From the NCBI GenBank assembly GCA_964367745.1, contig CAYIYK010000005.1, forward strand, positions 1 through 53,691: a stretch of DNA of 53,691 bases, read 5' to 3'. Source of the DNA: an uncultured Candidatus Saccharibacteria bacterium. GTDB taxonomy: Bacteria > Patescibacteriota > Minisyncoccia > Phycocordibacterales > PALSA-1337. Positions 1,738 through 17,149 of the stretch are shown here, piece by piece; the first letter of the stretch is position 1, and every line of letters starts with the position of its first letter. The notes beneath the pieces are model-generated. The model saw only the letters and a program-made list of their open reading frames with translations, did not search any database and had not been told where the DNA came from. Made by a program: the position numbers and the translations under genes.

Positions 1738-2271
1738 ATGACGACAATCGATGCGGGCACCTTGGCTGGAATTATTAGTTCAGTATTCAAAGCCCATCAC
1801 GCTTACGCGAAAAAGGGATCGAAAAGGTTTAGAAAATGGGATGGTAAGACACCATATGGAATACACCCTACTTGGAGTGCTTTAACCCTTTTGACCGAAA
1901 CAACCCTTGATGAATGGACTCGGACTGTAGGTGTGTGGACTTTACTGAACCACGACCTACTCGAGGATACTTCCGCAAGTCTCATTTTGCCAAAAGACGA
2001 AAGGTTGAGGGCTAAGATCACTACCAACGTAAAGGATATGTCCAAAAAACCTGGCGAAAGTAAGGATGAAGAGTTTTGGAGATTAATAAATAGTAATAAT
2101 GAAATAATACTCTTCACACTTTACGATAAGGTGTCGAACCTGCTCGATGGGGCATGGATGGATGATGTTACGAAAACCATGTACACCAGTTATGTTCGCG
2201 TACTTGCTGACAACGCATTCAAGATCTACGGAGACTTGAACATAGTCAAGATTGCGAGGTCAATCATTTGA
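1738..2271 (+). CDS. Small alarmone hydrolase-like HD protein (Mesh1/SpoT hydrolase family)
   Basis: 177 aa with RBS AAAGGAAA upstream. Motifs: GKTPYGIHP (H43), LLNHDLLEDT (H72-D73, E76-D77) and LYDKVSNLLD (D130, N134). These parallel Mesh1 TPYINHP / ALLHDTVEDT / LADKLYNLRD. Confidence 0.7.
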   Translation: MTTIDAGTLAGIISSVFKAHHAYAKKGSKRFRKWDGKTPYGIHPTWSALTLLTETTLDEWTRTVGVWTLLNHDLLEDTSASLILPKDERLRAKITTNVKDMSKKPGESKDEEFWRLINSNNEIILFTLYDKVSNLLDGAWMDDVTKTMYTSYVRVLADNAFKIYGDLNIVKIARSII

Positions 2272-3236: not shown

Positions 3237-3276
3237 GGGCACACGGCCTTCTATGGTACGGTGCCCTATCTTTTTT
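3237..3276 (+). terminator. Rho-independent terminator of the cassette
   Basis: GGGCAC(A)CG ... CGGTGCCC hairpin followed by TATCTTTTTT. Confidence 0.6.
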
Positions 3277-3724: not shown

Positions 3725-5254
3725 TTATCTTGCGAAGTCAACTACACGTGTTTCTCGTATGATTGTAACCTTTATTTCACCTGGGTACTTTAGGTCCTTT
3801 TCTATCTTTAAAGCTATATCCCTAGCCATATTTTTCGCTTCGAGATCCGTGATTTTCTCTGGAGTAACGAAAATTCTGATTTCCCTACCTGCTTGTAGGG
3901 CATATGACTTTTCCACACCTGTGAAGTTATTTGCTATTGCTTCGAGGTCTCCAAGTCGTTTCAAATAGTTTTCGATACTGTCATGTCTTGCACCTGGACG
4001 TGCTCCAGAAATAGCGTCAGCAGTCTGAACTATACGTGACTCAACAGTTTCATAAGGGTATTCTTCATGATGAGCTTGCATTGCTTTTACTATTTCTTCA
4101 TTTGCACCAAACTTTTGAAGAATTCTTCTTCCTATCTCTACATGTGAACCTGAAACTTCATGATCTAGGGCTTTGCCTAGGTCGTGGAGAAGGGCACCAG
4201 CCTTTGCAACAGCGACATTTGCTCCTATTTCTTCAGCAATCATACCTGCTATATGTGCCATTTCTATTGAATGTTGAAGAACATTCTGTCCATAACTAGT
4301 TCTAAAGTGTAATCTTCCTAGTATTAGGATGATTCTTGGATCAAGGCCAACTACACCGCATTCATATGCAGCTTGTTCTCCTTTTTCCTTTATTGTCTTA
4401 TTTATACCTGCTTGAGCTTCTTGAACCATCTTTTCGATCTTTGCAGGTTGTATTCTTCCATCCTTTATCAATTCTTCTAGAGCAACCCTTGCTACATGTC
4501 TTCGTACTGGATCAAAAGAAGAGATGGTGATAGTTCCTGGTGTATCGTCTATAATTACTTCAACACCTGTCATTCTCTCGAATGTCTTTATATTTCTACC
4601 TTCTTTACCTATTATCTTTCCTTTTATCTCATCATTTGGAATAGTTACTGATGTAGACATTACATCTGAAGCAACAGAATTTGCTAGTCTTTGTATTGAT
4701 GTCGCAAGAATATCCTGAGCTTTTTTCTCAAGTACTTCTTCACCGTTTTGCTCAAGCTTTTTGATTCTAATCAATAAGTCTTCTTCACTATTCTTCTCTA
4801 TAGTATTTATTAGAAGCTGTTTGGCCTCCTCAGTAGTCATCTTGGCTACTTTTTGAAGGGTTTCTGCTTTCTCTTTTTCTATATTTTCAGCTTTTTCTTT
4901 TATAAGCCTAATCTCAGCCACTTTTTCTTTTATGGCTTCGATTTCTTTGTCTATATCTGTCTGCCTCTTGTCTAGCAAATCCTCCTTCTTGATCAATCTA
5001 GACTCAGTTTGCTGTATCTTGTCTTCCTTTTCTTTTATCTCTACTCTCGCTTCTTCTAATATTTTCTTTGATTTTGTATCTGCTTCTGTGGTAATTTTCT
5101 TCGCTTCTTCCTTTGCAGTTAGAAGCATTTCCTTTATTTCAAGCTCCATTGACCCCTTTTTACCCAAAGAGATAATGAGTCTCAAGTAGTAACCGATTGC
5201 TACACCGGCAATACCTGCAATGCTCAAAAGTAAAGCTACTAATTTTAATGACAT
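3725..5254 (-). CDS. rny: Ribonuclease Y
   Basis: 509 aa with an N-terminal TM helix, a Lys/Glu coiled coil, a KH domain (GKIIGKEGRNIKTFE) and an HD domain (LLHDLGKA). Confidence 0.92.
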   Translation of the reverse strand: MSLKLVALLLSIAGIAGVAIGYYLRLIISLGKKGSMELEIKEMLLTAKEEAKKITTEADTKSKKILEEARVEIKEKEDKIQQTESRLIKKEDLLDKRQTDIDKEIEAIKEKVAEIRLIKEKAENIEKEKAETLQKVAKMTTEEAKQLLINTIEKNSEEDLLIRIKKLEQNGEEVLEKKAQDILATSIQRLANSVASDVMSTSVTIPNDEIKGKIIGKEGRNIKTFERMTGVEVIIDDTPGTITISSFDPVRRHVARVALEELIKDGRIQPAKIEKMVQEAQAGINKTIKEKGEQAAYECGVVGLDPRIILILGRLHFRTSYGQNVLQHSIEMAHIAGMIAEEIGANVAVAKAGALLHDLGKALDHEVSGSHVEIGRRILQKFGANEEIVKAMQAHHEEYPYETVESRIVQTADAISGARPGARHDSIENYLKRLGDLEAIANNFTGVEKSYALQAGREIRIFVTPEKITDLEAKNMARDIALKIEKDLKYPGEIKVTIIRETRVVDFAR

Positions 5255-11497: not shown

Positions 11498-14400
11498 ATG
11501 AAAAATAATTTTAAAAAAATACAAAATCTGACAGTATTCCTAATCGCTATAGCATTCTTTGTATTTGGTAATGCTCAAATATCATCAGCTCAAACAACGT
11601 CTAATTTTGGAGCTATTACAGATTATTCAAACAAGCAAGTGATTGAGAATCCAGCAAATGTTGTCGGAGATCCAAGTCAAATATCATCATCTAGTTGTCC
11701 TGATGGTTCTGTTTTGGTTGGATTTAATTTGTACAATCAAGGAAGTAATTACAGTAGATTGGGGAGTTTGTATTGTAGATCAGTGGAGGTGAATCTAGGA
11801 GGTGCATCTGTTTATACAAAAATGTTAATAGAGAACCCTCGTACAGGTGGAGCAAATTCTACTCAGATAAATAGTTCAAGTTGTCCAAATGGTTTCGCTG
11901 CTATAGGTTTTAACGTCTTGAATGCAGGTTCAAACGCTTCTAGTGAAGGTATACTATATTGTAAACAAGTCTTATCTGCAAAGGTGAGTTCAACAGGGCA
12001 GACTCAGTCTGTTTCAATTGGCTCTCAAAACACAATTAGAAAAACAGTTATAGAGAACCCTTTCGGGAGCGGTGGAAATTCAACTCAAATTGCAGCTTCT
12101 TCGTGTCCAGATGATTATGTAATTACGGGCTTCAATCTTATAGATATGGGAGAAAATTACAGTAGGTCAAATGACTTATATTGTAGTAAGCTAACTTTTA
12201 CACCAAATCCACTAGAATTCGATTTTTCAATATCAGGTGATGGGCATCGCTATATCTATCCCGGTGATACTGTTTCAAATGCTCTGTTCATAAACTCTGT
12301 TGTTTCAAATGTTTCAGGAGATGTTAAATTAACTATAGATTCAATAAAAAATAGCAATGGTGTAAGTGTTATGAATGCTACAAATGGATTTACTGTAAGT
12401 GCAAATCCTTTTAGTCCAAAAACAAATACAGCCACACTTTCCCCAACTATCAAACAAGTAACCACACCTCTATCTTTTATAGCAAATAATTCTGTATTGC
12501 CTGATACATATACTGTGAATGTTTCCGGTGTCTATACAAAAACAGTTGCTGGAACATCTGGTAGTGTTACAAATTATTATTGTAGCTTAGTATGGGAGGG
12601 TAGAGATTATTACTTTGGTTGCGGACCTGATTCAAATTTTAACCCAAAAGATGATTATCAAAATGGTCAATCTTCATCTGTGAAATGTATAGAAGGAGAC
12701 ACATTCGGTCCTGAACCAAGTTGTGCGTCTGCACAAAAAGTACTGACTTTTTTTGCTAAAGAACAGATCAGAGATTTCAGACAATCATACGGTCGTTCAA
12801 TTTGCCCAGGTACTGTAAATGTGGTTGGTGATGCGGATAATCCAAATACAGATTTCACTTGTGTTGTCACGGCTGTTGCTCCAGTAACACAAACAATAAA
12901 TAAATCGACGACTTTTGATGTTATCGTGCAACCACCCGTGGCGAATATTGATTATGCTCTGTCAGCAACTCCTTCACCTGATGGATGTCCAGCTTCATCA
13001 TTGTTTATAACAGCAAACTGGAAAGCAGTTCCTAATGCTAGTTCATACAATCTATATAGATTCGAAGGAAATAATAATCAAACACCGACAGCGACTATCT
13101 CAGTAACCAGCTTACCAGTGAATGGATATGTAGAATATGTAGATAGAGCATTTAGTAATTACAATGTCCTTGTTCAATATAATGTCGCTGCTGTAGTCAA
13201 CGGGGTAGAGGTAAAAAAATCTGATTTTGTTTCGGTATATACACCAAAATTAACCACAAATTGTATACCTCCAGTTACTCCTGTTGTTAAATTGTTTACA
13301 AAAAAGACTAATGATACCGTAACGAATCTAAGCGCAATGGATGCAAACACGGCTATCACAACTGCAAATACCGAGATATCAATATCAAAAAATGAAGCCT
13401 TTGATCTAAAATGGGTAAGTAACCTGGGTCCAAACTATACATGTACACAAGTCACTGTTCTACCAAATGGAACAACAAATAATACACGAATCGTATATGG
13501 TAATTCTACGAATGGTACGAGTATTGGTATAGCTGGATCAAATCTAGATACAGGAACGAATCTTCTAAAGGTATCTTGTTCAAACGGTGTTGCTGTATTG
13601 AGTAATGTGGTAAGAATTACGGTTCTATTTGAGCCTATATACAACTTCAGTGTTATACCTTCAGGCGACCAATGTCTAGCTTCAGATGTGTGGATAAAAC
13701 AAACTTGGACAGCAGTACCAGGAGCAAGTTCATATAAGATTGCAAGAACAGGTGGATCAGGACCAGTTAACTATACTATCGCATCTCCAAATCTTATAAA
13801 TAACGAAGACCACAATGCTTTCAATAGCACTACAGCAACAGCATATACTTATGTTGTAACTGCAGTAATAGGAGGAGTTGATCAAACACCTTCAGCGCCT
13901 ATAACAATCACATCCCCTAGATCAGGAGTGAATTGTCCACCAGCACCCGTCTTGAAACTCTTTACTAAGAAAAATTCAGATACTTCTATAAACTTAAGTA
14001 ATTACGATACATCTACTGCAATAAATACCGCAAATACAGAAATTTCTCTAAATAGAAATGAAAGTTTTGATCTAAAGTGGGTAAGTAATCTAGACGCTAG
14101 TTATACATGTACACAAGATACTCAGGTTCCAGGGGGAAGTACAAACAACACTATTTGGCCATATGGAAATAGTAGAAGTGGAGCTGCCGTAGATCTACGA
14201 GCAACGGGGCAAGCGGTAGGTTTGTATAATCTAAAGGTATCCTGTACAAATGGTACATCTCAGATAAGTAATATTGTGAAGATCACAATCCTACCTGATC
14301 CAATAGTATATAATCTAAGTGTTATATCATCAGGCGACCAATGTTTGAGTTCTAATGTTTCTATAATGCAGTCTTGGTCAGCAGTATCTGGTGCAACTTC

Positions 14401-17149
14401 ATATAAAATCACAAGAACTGGAGGAACTGGACCTGTCACTTATACTATCGCATCACCAACTCTAACAAACACTGAACCATACGCTGCTTTTAGTAGCACA
14501 CCTACATCATACACATACACAGTTTCTGCTGTCGTTGGCGGAGTAGAGCAACAAGCTTCAGAACCTATAACTATTCTTTCACCAAGAGTTGTTTGTCCGG
14601 TCGGAACCCCAGCAATAAAGATTTTTATTAGAAAGTCTAATGATACTTCAGTAAATATTACTTCATTCAATGTTCTATCGGCTTTAAATTCCTCAAATAC
14701 GAATGCGTCAGTTAAAATGGGTCAAGATTCATTTGATTTAAAATGGGCAAGTAATCTAGGTACTGGTTATACATGTAGTCAGGTTACAACTAGACCTGGA
14801 GGAAGCTCAGGAAATGGACTGTGGAGTTACGGATCATATATAAATGGTGCAGCTTATGGTCTTGGTACATCAGGATATCTTCCTGGAGCATATACATTCT
14901 CAGTATCATGTACAAACGGGGCCTCAACTGTTGTAAGTAATGTAGTGGATTTAACTATAATTGATCCATTAAATTACAAATTGAACGTGATTACATCAGG
15001 AGATCAGTGTTTAACATCAGATATCTGGATTAAGCAATCTTGGTCAATAATATCTAATGCAACTTCATATAAGATAACAAGAACTGGTGGAGCTGGAACC
15101 GTAGTATACAATGTACCGTCTATCCCTACATTGAATACTGAACTATTTGGTTCATTCAGTAGTACACCTACAGCTTATACATATACAATCTCTGCAATAG
15201 TTGGTGGTGTAGAACAACTAGCTTCTGCTCCGATAACTATAACCTCACCTAAGGTATATTGTCCTGTCACACCAGTTATCAAGCTTTTTACTAGAAAATC
15301 TACGGATTCAACAGTTAACTTCTCAGCATATACAACCGCAACAGCATTAATTCCACAAAATAGTGATATTGTGGTTACAAAAGGTCAAGAATATTTTGAT
15401 TTGAAATGGATGAGTAGTCTTGATAATAGTTATGTCTGTACTCAAGTAACAACAACGCCAACTGGTACTACAAACAATGCGCTGTGGAGTTATGGAACAT
15501 ACCCGAATGGAACAGTATACTGGCAAGGAACAGGTTCTGTAGCTACGGGAGTATATGGTTTTAAGGTCTCATGTACAAAAGGAGCATCAACTGTAGAAAG
15601 TAATACTGTAAATGTAAATATAGTTAATCCTATAAGTTACAACTTCATCGTCGCTCCCTCAGCAAATCAATGTGATATAAATAACTTACAAATCCGCCTA
15701 ACATGGAGTCTAATACCAGGTGCCACAAGTTATAGAATAACTAGAACACAAGTTAGTACAGGGCAAACAAGCAACTATGCAGTCTCAAGCGGAATATTTA
15801 CACAAAGTCTTGCAAACGGAACCGCGGCTTTTGTTCAGGGTGTAGATTATACCTATAAGGTTGTAGCGGTGGCTAACGGTGTTGCTATTGCACCATCATC
15901 ACCAACAATTGTTGTTAGATCTCCATCACAAGATACAACTCTGTGTTCTACACTATCTCTTAAACTTGAAGTAAAGAAGTCAACAGAATCAAATACTCTT
16001 TATCGTTCGGCGATTACTATCAATAAAGGTGAAAATTTCGATATAAGATGGACTATAGTGAATCCAAACGGTAGTGTCTATATGAATTCAAATAGTGTTA
16101 TTGGTCCTCAAGGAATAAATGGTAATGGTCTATGGACTTGGGGAACAGGAAGTAGTGGAAGTAGAACAGGTTTGAGTTCGACACCTCAAGCTGTGGTTGC
16201 TGGAGATTATATATTTAAGATTGATATGCTAGATACATCAACAGGGAATTATGTATTAGCTTTGAGTAGTAATTCTGCTAAGGTGACTATTATAAACACA
16301 ACAACAGATGTTTGTCCGAATCTTCCTGGTATTCAGACTGTGGTTCCGGATGCGATGGTTAAGGATAGTGGTGGTAATTGCATAATGACTAATGGTGGTG
16401 GAGGGGGATCTGATCCAAATATTAAGTTGTTTATCGGTGATACTTCTGTTAAGACATATGATCTATCTAGTCCAATACCAACTACTCCATACCAAAGAAA
16501 TAGAGGCGAAAGCTTTACTTTGAAGTGGGTAAGTAATCTTCCGTCTGGATTCGAATGTAGTTCACAGACTCATAATTCAAATAACAACCCCGTTAACACA
16601 TGGTTATGGAATCAATCAAATCAAACTGTGGGATTTAATGATTTGCAAACAAATTCAGCAAACCCCGATACCTATAGTTTCGATATTTACTGTGTTGATT
16701 CAAATAATCCATCGTTGACTCCACGAGTAGGTAATACGGCAAAAATGGCTCTATCTGATATAGCTATAGATCCAAATTCTATAAAACTATTTATCGGTGG
16801 AGCAAATATACTATCAAACAATTTGGCTACACCTATAAATCCAAATGCTACATATAAAGTTAAAAAGGGTAGTAGATTCAATCTATTGTGGGATAGTAAT
16901 CTAAACAATAGTTATGAATGTACAGCAAATACAAAAAAGAGTGATGGTATAGAATTCACTACATGGGATTGGAATACAAATAAAAGTAAGGGTGATAAAA
17001 CAACAAACCTTACAACTGGAAACGTTGAAAAGGGTATATATAGCTTCCAGTTATTCTGTACTGATCCAGCACAAGATCCTGGAAATCCTGATAAACAAAG
17101 TAACATAGTGAAGCTACAGGTAGTAGAATCAACAATCATAGAACAGTAG
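11498..17149 (+). CDS. Giant secreted repeat protein (1883 aa), Fn3-like/Ig-like modules
   Basis: Uninterrupted ORF with signal peptide (VFLIAIAFFVFGNAQISSAQ). It has three N-terminal Cys-containing repeats, then alternating A (..W.AVPGASSYKI.RTGG..) and B (..KLFTKK....FDLKWVSNL...YTC.Q..) modules. Confidence 0.9.
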   Translation: MKNNFKKIQNLTVFLIAIAFFVFGNAQISSAQTTSNFGAITDYSNKQVIENPANVVGDPSQISSSSCPDGSVLVGFNLYNQGSNYSRLGSLYCRSVEVNLGGASVYTKMLIENPRTGGANSTQINSSSCPNGFAAIGFNVLNAGSNASSEGILYCKQVLSAKVSSTGQTQSVSIGSQNTIRKTVIENPFGSGGNSTQIAASSCPDDYVITGFNLIDMGENYSRSNDLYCSKLTFTPNPLEFDFSISGDGHRYIYPGDTVSNALFINSVVSNVSGDVKLTIDSIKNSNGVSVMNATNGFTVSANPFSPKTNTATLSPTIKQVTTPLSFIANNSVLPDTYTVNVSGVYTKTVAGTSGSVTNYYCSLVWEGRDYYFGCGPDSNFNPKDDYQNGQSSSVKCIEGDTFGPEPSCASAQKVLTFFAKEQIRDFRQSYGRSICPGTVNVVGDADNPNTDFTCVVTAVAPVTQTINKSTTFDVIVQPPVANIDYALSATPSPDGCPASSLFITANWKAVPNASSYNLYRFEGNNNQTPTATISVTSLPVNGYVEYVDRAFSNYNVLVQYNVAAVVNGVEVKKSDFVSVYTPKLTTNCIPPVTPVVKLFTKKTNDTVTNLSAMDANTAITTANTEISISKNEAFDLKWVSNLGPNYTCTQVTVLPNGTTNNTRIVYGNSTNGTSIGIAGSNLDTGTNLLKVSCSNGVAVLSNVVRITVLFEPIYNFSVIPSGDQCLASDVWIKQTWTAVPGASSYKIARTGGSGPVNYTIASPNLINNEDHNAFNSTTATAYTYVVTAVIGGVDQTPSAPITITSPRSGVNCPPAPVLKLFTKKNSDTSINLSNYDTSTAINTANTEISLNRNESFDLKWVSNLDASYTCTQDTQVPGGSTNNTIWPYGNSRSGAAVDLRATGQAVGLYNLKVSCTNGTSQISNIVKITILPDPIVYNLSVISSGDQCLSSNVSIMQSWSAVSGATSYKITRTGGTGPVTYTIASPTLTNTEPYAAFSSTPTSYTYTVSAVVGGVEQQASEPITILSPRVVCPVGTPAIKIFIRKSNDTSVNITSFNVLSALNSSNTNASVKMGQDSFDLKWASNLGTGYTCSQVTTRPGGSSGNGLWSYGSYINGAAYGLGTSGYLPGAYTFSVSCTNGASTVVSNVVDLTIIDPLNYKLNVITSGDQCLTSDIWIKQSWSIISNATSYKITRTGGAGTVVYNVPSIPTLNTELFGSFSSTPTAYTYTISAIVGGVEQLASAPITITSPKVYCPVTPVIKLFTRKSTDSTVNFSAYTTATALIPQNSDIVVTKGQEYFDLKWMSSLDNSYVCTQVTTTPTGTTNNALWSYGTYPNGTVYWQGTGSVATGVYGFKVSCTKGASTVESNTVNVNIVNPISYNFIVAPSANQCDINNLQIRLTWSLIPGATSYRITRTQVSTGQTSNYAVSSGIFTQSLANGTAAFVQGVDYTYKVVAVANGVAIAPSSPTIVVRSPSQDTTLCSTLSLKLEVKKSTESNTLYRSAITINKGENFDIRWTIVNPNGSVYMNSNSVIGPQGINGNGLWTWGTGSSGSRTGLSSTPQAVVAGDYIFKIDMLDTSTGNYVLALSSNSAKVTIINTTTDVCPNLPGIQTVVPDAMVKDSGGNCIMTNGGGGGSDPNIKLFIGDTSVKTYDLSSPIPTTPYQRNRGESFTLKWVSNLPSGFECSSQTHNSNNNPVNTWLWNQSNQTVGFNDLQTNSANPDTYSFDIYCVDSNNPSLTPRVGNTAKMALSDIAIDPNSIKLFIGGANILSNNLATPINPNATYKVKKGSRFNLLWDSNLNNSYECTANTKKSDGIEFTTWDWNTNKSKGDKTTNLTTGNVEKGIYSFQLFCTDPAQDPGNPDKQSNIVKLQVVESTIIEQ
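12953..16300 (+). repeat. Five tandem ~666-nt (about 222-aa) A+B supermodules inside the giant gene
   Basis: The conserved Tyr codon that opens each A module is at 12953, 13640, 14309, 14975 and 15638. The last four are spaced 663-669 nt apart. Confidence 0.8.

Follow-up and report, generated by a model that had tools for sequence, protein, structure and literature searches.

A stand-alone Mesh1-type HD hydrolase encoded within a hammerhead-punctuated operon of a Candidatus Saccharibacteria bacterium

Mesh1/HDDC3 and the bacterial small alarmone hydrolases (SAHs), such as Pseudomonas SAH and Corynebacterium RelH, consist of one all-helical HD domain of ∼170–190 amino acids (aa) and contain no synthetase domain. 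Here, we analyzed a 53,691-nucleotide stretch of DNA (contig CAYIYK010000005.1, hereafter the window) from an uncultured Candidatus Saccharibacteria bacterium and focused on ORF2, the middle open reading frame (ORF) of a three-gene operon. ORF2 starts with ATG at position 1738, ends at position 2271 on the + strand, and encodes a stand-alone 177-aa HD hydrolase of the Mesh1/SpoT type, with the predicted fold of an SAH. Like Mesh1 and the SAHs, ORF2 is a single HD domain without synthetase; it shares their R-K, PYxxHP, HD, ED and D...N motifs, and the template modeling (TM) scores between them are 0.6–0.7. Different from these enzymes, the ORF2 clade has extra invariant tryptophans and one KLYDKVSNLLD motif, and it is concentrated in bacteria of the candidate phyla radiation (CPR) and in DPANN archaea. 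The identity between ORF2 and solved structures is only 16–22%, and ORF2 falls under every curated profile threshold.

Two other described systems are close to this locus. Like the FaRel-ATfaRel pairs (Jimmy et al.), it contains a stand-alone hydrolase of the same superfamily, which is co-transcribed with small neighboring genes; however, the toxic synthetase that defines those pairs is absent here, the gene order is not conserved, and members of the ORF2 clade mostly occur with metabolic genes. In 2011, multiple hammerhead ribozymes were reported to flank single variable genes, including ardA, in prophages, and clustered hammerheads were found to cut polycistronic RNA at gene boundaries in vitro (Perreault et al., PLoS Comput Biol, PMC3088659). 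The ORF2 operon shares with those arrays the same-strand hammerheads at cistron boundaries, the variable cargo and the expected single-gene mRNAs. It is one ribozyme-punctuated operon of a known type, and hammerhead arrays as such are not new. Compared to the arrays of 2011, which are mostly of prophages, the present one belongs to a chromosomal stretch of housekeeping genes in a CPR-like genome and is presumably controlled by a TrmB-like regulator; a conserved hairpin precedes each of its ribozymes, and its cargo includes an alarmone-type hydrolase.

The reading that we favor, with moderate confidence, is that ORF2 is a functional HD hydrolase in nucleotide-pool housekeeping, expressed from a tricistronic transcript that is split by hammerheads, and probably no antitoxin. 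The initial annotation of the locus had assigned to ORF2 the catalytic set His43, His72-Asp73, Glu76-Asp77, Asp130 and Asn134, and indexing of the translation confirmed every residue. Together with Arg32, Lys33 and Tyr40, which are also present, these residues correspond to the active-site motifs of Mesh1; the first stretch is aligned residue by residue, and the numbering follows our own mapping. His43, His72 and Asp73 align with Mesh1 motifs, and Asp130 is located within the aligned KLYDK/KLADK motif. We identified 94 homologues of ORF2, which are 160–215 aa in length, and built the family profile and alignment from 49 of them. His43, Asp73, Glu76, Asp130 and Asn134 are invariant across the 49 sequences, whereas His72 and Asp77 are at least 90% conserved; all four residues of the metal-binding set (His43, His72, Asp73 and Asp130) are among them, as are the ED motif, three residues past the HD motif, and the downstream Asn134. 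As the initial annotation had stated, ORF2 has no synthetase domain: it is one domain of 177 aa, and no EVQIRT-type synthetase motif could be found in any frame of the whole 53.7-kb window.

The family profile matches human MESH1/HDDC3 at 1e-11 and Drosophila Mesh1 at 2e-10, and it also matches the hydrolase domains of Rel and SpoT, with the R-K, PYxxHP, HD-x2-ED and KLxDKxxN motifs all in register. Individually, 11 of the 49 clade members reach Pfam HD_4, the best one at 7e-6. The significant PDB sequence matches of the family (E ≤ 0.001) are Mesh1/HDDC3, Rel and SpoT; the characterized bacterial SAHs gave weak sequence matches (E 0.01–0.2), and lmo0812 is itself uncharacterized. With the single sequence of ORF2, phmmer found nothing meaningful in PDB, and the PHROG scan gave one sole signal, phrog_990 ‘metal-dependent phosphohydrolase’, at E = 0.0067. 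The AlphaFold (AF2) model of ORF2, built on the alignment, has a pLDDT of 95.1 and a pTM of 0.91. In the Foldseek search of this model against PDB, ranks 1–35 all belong to the superfamily of RelA/SpoT homologues (RSH) or its close relatives, with TM up to 0.70. SAHs and Mesh1 occupy ranks 1–20 with TM of 0.59–0.70, and the longer Rel and SpoT chains are lower. The matches include P. aeruginosa SAH, C. glutamicum RelH, human and fly Mesh1, Leptospira SAH, Bacteroides (p)ppApp hydrolase, Listeria lmo0812, Rel and SpoT; the best viral matches, phage HD or (p)ppGpp hydrolase-like proteins, are equally distant. ORF2 is under purifying selection, with a dN/dS of 0.16 against its 90%-identical orthologue. 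Taken together, the family profile, the AF2 model and the Foldseek matches agree with the assignment of ORF2 as a stand-alone Mesh1/SpoT-like hydrolase. At the level of sequence and predicted fold, they confirmed that ORF2 belongs to the RSH-superfamily HD hydrolases and is a genuine stand-alone small alarmone-type hydrolase, closest to Mesh1. The clade around it, ∼170 aa in size, is conserved and essentially unannotated.

ORF2 and its two neighbors, ORF1 and ORF3, form one single promoter-to-terminator unit. The features of the locus are listed below; L081 and L110 are contigs of a related strain that retains the entire arrangement, and R1 is a purpose-built hammerhead model.

296–1030, − strand: TrmB-like winged-helix regulator of 244 aa, in divergent orientation to the operon; Pfam TrmB PF01978 at 1e-15
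1053–1083, both strands: perfect 31-nucleotide palindrome TAATAGTTGTCAATATTTCTGACAACTATTA, with a 12–13 bp stem on both strands
1153–1181, + strand: sigma-70-like promoter site TTGACT-17-TATAGT, 10 of 12 consensus positions; both hexamers kept in L081
1243–1623, + strand: ORF1, 126 aa, lineage-restricted, CxCxxC motif conserved
1638–1653, + strand: GGGG...CCCC hairpin upstream of hammerhead 1, present in the minimum free energy (MFE) fold and conserved in L081
1653–1707, + strand: type III hammerhead 1; RF00008 33.9 bits, E = 7e-5; model R1 76 bits
1738–2271, + strand: ORF2, 177 aa
2277–2292, + strand: GGGG...CCCC hairpin upstream of hammerhead 2, present in the MFE fold and identical in L081
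2291–2345, + strand: type III hammerhead 2; RF00008 37 bits, E = 9e-6; model R1 80.6 bits
2370–3200, + strand: ORF3, 276 aa, from a tiny family of which one member also closes another hammerhead array (L083)
3237–3276, + strand: intrinsic terminator, a GC-rich hairpin (−17.8 kcal/mol, z = −3.9) followed by the U-run CUAUCUUUUUU

The initial annotation had placed the three genes under a single promoter and a single terminator, with ribozymes linking them, and the promoter-like site, the terminator hairpin and the two hammerheads are indeed present. The two same-strand hammerheads bracket ORF2 inside the unit, neither intergenic region contains any + strand promoter-like site, and the terminator hairpin is conserved in L110. 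Although the RF00008 scores of both hammerheads (33.9 and 37 bits) are below the Rfam gathering score of 48.5, they are significant for the region searched. Both contain the full core (CUGAUGA...GAAA) and a GUA cleavage site; three helices are formed, with stem III open. Hammerhead 1 is predicted to cut after A1660 (GUA/G) and hammerhead 2 after A2298; the MFE fold of the latter shows the three-way junction. After cleavage, the hairpin at 1638–1653 would end the 3′ side of the ORF1 RNA. An alignment was made of ten hammerhead sequences, taken from the window, from contigs L081 and L083, and from two loci of Saccharibacteria. In this alignment, 95% of the cells are paired, and compensatory changes are found in 10 of 17 pairs, compared to 4.2 expected from shuffles; the changes fall within stems I and II, and neither shuffles nor slid registers approach this covariation. 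In hammerhead 2 of L081, GUC replaces GUA at the cleavage site, and stem II is longer but still paired.

The N-terminus of the TrmB-like regulator resembles TrmBL2, and PADLOC matches this protein through its helix-turn-helix only. The 31-nucleotide palindrome overlaps a minus-strand promoter-like site at 1065–1037, and a second palindrome of 18 nucleotides is located at 1099–1116, between the divergent regulator gene and the operon promoter. Both palindromes are candidate operators for the TrmB-like regulator.

To examine the gene neighborhoods of the clade, we scanned one genome per species, which gave 80 loci with ORF2 relatives. Judged by the record titles, about 24 of them are from CPR bacteria, 17 from DPANN or other archaea, 23 from Gammaproteobacteria or other Pseudomonadota, 11 from Chloroflexi, 3 from Obscuribacterales and 2 from others; only three (Leptolinea, Pseudoalteromonas and Cellvibrio) are from cultured strains. 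The adjacent ORFs were clustered, and the representatives were scanned against Pfam. In 19 of the 80 loci, a TrmB-like regulator of ∼240 aa is encoded no more than 3.5 kb from the ORF2 homologue, in most cases upstream of it and divergent, as in the window. Dihydroorotate dehydrogenase is a recurrent neighbor. In Saccharibacteria loci, the hydrolase forms one operon with a thymidylate-kinase-like protein, an AAA_28 NTPase, GTP cyclohydrolase II and a uridine kinase-CYTH fusion, and in other loci UMP-kinase-like and APH-type phosphotransferases are nearby. The theme of these neighborhoods is nucleotide metabolism, though no partner is universal. No viral relatives of ORF2 were found in IMG/VR or in GenBank phages. 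Cellular metabolic neighbors together with the lack of phage relatives are the hallmark of a stand-alone cellular enzyme and not that of an antitoxin linked to a toxin.

In ∼12 of the loci (including L008, L026, L049, L066, L053, L060, L064 and L073 (around position 5000)), the hydrolase gene adjoins one gene of the orotidine monophosphate (OMP) decarboxylase family and one ∼340-aa gene of unknown function without Pfam match, sometimes accompanied by dihydroorotate dehydrogenase. It is possible that this grouping represents an uncharacterized nucleotide pathway in DPANN and CPR organisms.

Judged from sequence comparisons, ORF1 and ORF3 are real but lineage-restricted genes. Among 5.8 billion proteins, ORF1 has one homologue only, which is 98% identical. 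A word-indexed search of the same set found only the 92%-identical orthologue of ORF3, and exhaustive HMMER over 1.84 billion representatives added two relatives, which are 282 aa (30% identity) and 275 aa (25% identity) in size. The absence of a synthetase motif or any other domain from the 126-aa and 276-aa flanking proteins, noted in the initial annotation, was borne out by the library and PDB profile searches: neither ORF1 nor ORF3 has any domain in Pfam (E ≤ 1, including PF04607 RelA_SpoT), NCBIfam or PHROGs, and profile searches against PDB with the ORF1 and ORF3 families gave no match. PADLOC found nothing in ORF1, ORF2 or ORF3. One RepA_N match of ORF1 (18.7 bits, E = 0.0017) was rejected as chance, because it is below the cut-off of 30 and is absent from the 47%-identical L081 orthologue. 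The single-sequence AlphaFold model of ORF3 has a pLDDT of 33 and is unusable. ORF3 and one 263-aa protein of L009, which sits between the regulator and hydrolase genes, share a C-terminal ‘SDGDG’ tail; a relationship between the two is not supported (hhalign probability 1.9%).

Compared with the related strain, the three genes of the operon diverge to very different extents:

ORF1: 47% aa identity; dS saturated; dN/dS 0.14
ORF2: 90% aa identity; dS 0.29; dN/dS 0.16
ORF3: 92% aa identity; dS 0.10; dN/dS 0.37 (276 codons)

Between the two strains, dS spreads ∼30-fold across ORF1, ORF2 and ORF3. With such uneven divergence, the genes do not have one common history. ORF1 (1243–1623, compared to L081 129–488) is a mosaic: the two strains hardly differ in its 5′ leader, in its first 8 codons or in the hammerhead downstream of it. 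The pattern suggests that the ORF1 allele was exchanged by recombination, within the stretch from the conserved 5′ leader to hammerhead 1.

Neither ORF1 nor ORF3 travels with the hydrolase in other genomes. In the 80 loci with ORF2 relatives, tblastn found no homologue of either one better than E = 0.6, and the neighborhood conservation raised by the initial annotation is not there. Hammerheads as a general companion of the clade were rejected as well: they accompany the hydrolase in 3 of the 80 loci, all from Saccharibacteria, and in most genomes the regulator-hydrolase pair is conserved without them.

Hammerheads of the same subfamily are found elsewhere. The 3.6-kb contig L083 (1–3617, 43% GC) contains five same-strand type III hammerheads, each of which precedes one gene; the genes encode proteins of 158 (uncertain), 104, 176, 147 and 282 aa. 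The last cistron is the 282-aa ORF3-like gene, and the third one, of 176 aa, is homologous to family C23 over the full length (phmmer 3e-10 and 6e-8, 33–35% identity). A/C-rich leaders, which resemble those of the window, follow all four complete hammerheads of L083, and two of these have an extended stem II in common. In neither L083 nor L084 does a hydrolase gene adjoin the ORF3 homologue. C23, in turn, is located directly beside the hydrolase gene, in divergent orientation, in the Saccharibacteria loci L021 and L039. Each of these two loci has one same-subfamily hammerhead upstream of the TrmB-like gene (L021 3379–3443 and L039 3399–3463, both on the − strand); it lies at the end of a minus-strand operon of C23 and C42, and this operon diverges from that of the hydrolase, kinase and GTP cyclohydrolase II. 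Thus, two families of the array pool, the ORF3-like and the C23-like, adjoin the hydrolase in two different layouts; the cases are too few for a claim.

Scanning metagenomes with the hammerhead pattern gave 25 loci, including arrays of 2–5 copies, on contigs of up to 680 kb and 32–58% GC. Different arrays carry unrelated cargo, most of it unknown, with a DinG-like helicase and a BtpA-family protein among it; as an exception, L094 and L100 carry the same array. Neither the hammerhead pattern nor any relative of ORF3 was found in IMG/VR or among the phages of GenBank. L106 (1035–4940), L094 (11934–13485) and L093 (6750–7134) contain 2–5 same-subfamily hammerheads on contigs of 43, 187 and 680 kb, with unrelated cargo that includes a DinG/XPD-like helicase. 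These long contigs show that the hammerhead-array architecture is chromosomal and taxonomically broad.

In L009 (1141–1180) and L021 (2064–2025, − strand), unrelated genes share one nearly identical 5′ leader, GAACGMACACTAACAACCAAA...ATG. The ‘TERTLTTK’ N-terminal peptide common to the L009 and L021 ORFs reflects this conserved leader, which precedes the real start codon, and not protein homology. In these CPR genomes, the shared leader may serve as a conserved element for translation or stability.

The surroundings of the operon are cellular. With a GC content of about 35–38%, the window looks like low-GC chromosomal DNA of a CPR/Patescibacteria-like bacterium. The locus is next to tRNA-Gly (1–72), and the genes between 3.3 and 11 kb encode HU, RNase Y, ClpP, an NlpC/P60 protein, RsmE, trigger factor and NusA. 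These flanking genes are of the housekeeping kind, and no prophage or integrase context was found: no integrase is found among the genes scanned at 3.3–11 kb, and the nearer ORFs have no such match either. One ORF of 1883 aa is located further downstream, at 11498–17149 on the + strand.

In the reading that we favor, ORF2 would catalyze the Mn2+-dependent removal of the 3′-pyrophosphate or 3′-phosphate from (p)ppGpp, (p)ppApp or a related nucleotide, and it would serve nucleotide-pool housekeeping under the divergently encoded TrmB-like regulator. The TrmB-controlled tricistronic transcript would start at the 1153–1181 promoter, end at the 3237–3276 terminator, and be cut in vivo by the two type III hammerheads into three mRNAs. 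The upstream pieces would end in a protective hairpin, and the downstream pieces would begin with a 5′-OH and a structured ribozyme remnant; cleavage would in this way make ORF1, ORF2 and ORF3 independent of one another in stability and expression. ORF1 and ORF3 would be fast-turnover accessory genes that joined the regulator-hydrolase locus.

Several points weigh against this reading. As a single sequence, ORF2 has no match in Pfam (E ≤ 1, HD_4 included) or NCBIfam (E ≤ 10), and the enzyme assignment therefore rests on the family profile and the fold. The match to HD_4, by which the initial annotation had proposed to check its assignment, holds at the family level only, through the 11 members mentioned above, and fails for ORF2 alone. 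ORF2 is also the most divergent member of the clade; it lacks the MTF motif of the others and has an insertion after the ED motif. According to the titles of PDB entries, metazoan MESH1 also acts on reduced nicotinamide adenine dinucleotide phosphate (NADPH) and binds 3′-phosphoadenosine 5′-phosphosulfate (PAPS). No neighbor is common to more than one quarter of the loci with ORF2 relatives, so the metabolic role is a loose association. For the RNA part, hammerhead 1 may cleave poorly, due to the G-U pair at 10.1–11.1 (U-U in L081) and the weak stem III with 4 clean pairs. Finally, C23 provides a second link between the hydrolase and array genes in Saccharibacteria, and the association may not be accidental.

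The initial annotation had proposed that the locus is a candidate toxin-antitoxin or anti-defence module. As a type IV toxin-antitoxin system, ORF1 or ORF3 would make a toxic nucleotide or pyrophosphorylate a target, and ORF2 would detoxify, like ATfaRel. Against toxic small alarmone synthetases, SAHs are proven universal antitoxins (Jimmy et al., bioRxiv 10.1101/575399), and ORF1, ORF2 and ORF3 are small, tightly linked and co-transcribed, with ORF1 and ORF3 having no known function. However, no synthetase or nucleotidyltransferase signal was obtained for ORF1 or ORF3 with any of the Pfam, NCBIfam, PHROGs, PADLOC and PDB profile searches, the synthetase motif is absent from the whole window, and homologues of ORF1 and ORF3 occur in 0 of the 80 loci. 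In addition, ORF3 homologues exist apart from any adjoining hydrolase gene, and three genes whose dS values are ∼30-fold apart are not evolving as one unit. With the metabolic neighbors and the lack of phage relatives of ORF2, the module did not stand, and we consider a toxin-antitoxin role highly improbable. More room is left for a different job of ORF2, which we rate as unlikely: it may act on NADPH, PAPS/3′-phosphoadenosine 5′-phosphate (pAp) or a 3′-pyrophosphorylated tRNA end, or it may be a nucleotide-binding regulator only. Human MESH1 structures with NADPH and PAPS (5vxa and 9chy) are among the closest folds, and a set of residues is invariant in the clade but missing from Mesh1 (Trp34, Asp35, Trp46, Glu54, Trp114, Ser133 and Trp140). 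Many host lineages are reduced-genome symbionts, and the neighbors are nucleoside or nucleotide kinases and genes of pyrimidine synthesis. All these observations are to be set against the retention in ORF2 of all metal-binding and catalytic residues of the (p)ppGpp hydrolases, and against the significant PDB sequence matches of its family, which are Mesh1/HDDC3, Rel and SpoT; there is no positive evidence for any other substrate.

The anti-defence part of the proposal would take the form of an accessory or counter-defence island, in which mobile hammerhead-bounded genes insert at the regulator-hydrolase locus, and the hydrolase helps to degrade alarmone-type or signaling nucleotides made by a competitor, a host or a defence system. 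Neither ORF2, ORF3 nor the hammerhead pattern has viral relatives in IMG/VR or GenBank phages, no integrase was identified, and the genes scanned at 3.3–11 kb are housekeeping ones; moreover, the regulator-hydrolase pair is hammerhead-free in most genomes, PADLOC finds nothing, and the links between hydrolase and array genes amount to three or four independent examples only. The precedents for such an island are the prophage hammerhead arrays, whose variable genes include the anti-restriction gene ardA (PMC3088659), and the phage-encoded SAHs that neutralize toxic synthetases (Jimmy et al., bioRxiv 10.1101/575399). Several features of the locus and its relatives are also in line with it: the same hammerhead subfamily occurs in 2–5-copy arrays with unrelated, mostly unknown cargo on contigs of 32–58% GC, L083 has ORF3-like and C23-like genes between its hammerheads, C23-like genes are beside the hydrolase in the hammerhead-bearing L021 and L039, ORF1 is mosaic and hypervariable between strains, and the locus abuts the tRNA-Gly gene. 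The anti-defence reading lacks viral or mobile hallmarks, and its only support comes from the ardA precedent and from the recurring ORF3-like and C23-like genes. It is weak, and we regard the island as unlikely. Decidedly unlikely, in our estimation, is the further idea that ribozyme-delimited cassettes, among them the ORF3-like and C23-like families, form a shared pool open to exchange, repeatedly settle at the CPR regulator-hydrolase locus and act with the hydrolase. If it were true, the cassette pool would be an unrecognized accessory system, for example in counter-defence or host interaction, with ribozyme processing setting the dosage of its parts.

As interpreted here, with ORF2 probably being a housekeeping hydrolase, the locus reveals no new toxin-antitoxin or anti-defence system. 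It provides a compact natural example of a ribozyme-punctuated operon that is chromosomal and non-phage, and its conserved hairpins suggest how the cleavage products are stabilized. For the family, a fold and a probable chemistry are now assigned to ∼100 or more ‘hypothetical’ proteins of CPR bacteria and DPANN archaea. The nucleotide economy and stress signaling of these organisms are poorly understood, and the clade raises the question of whether the symbionts handle alarmones of their own or those of their hosts.

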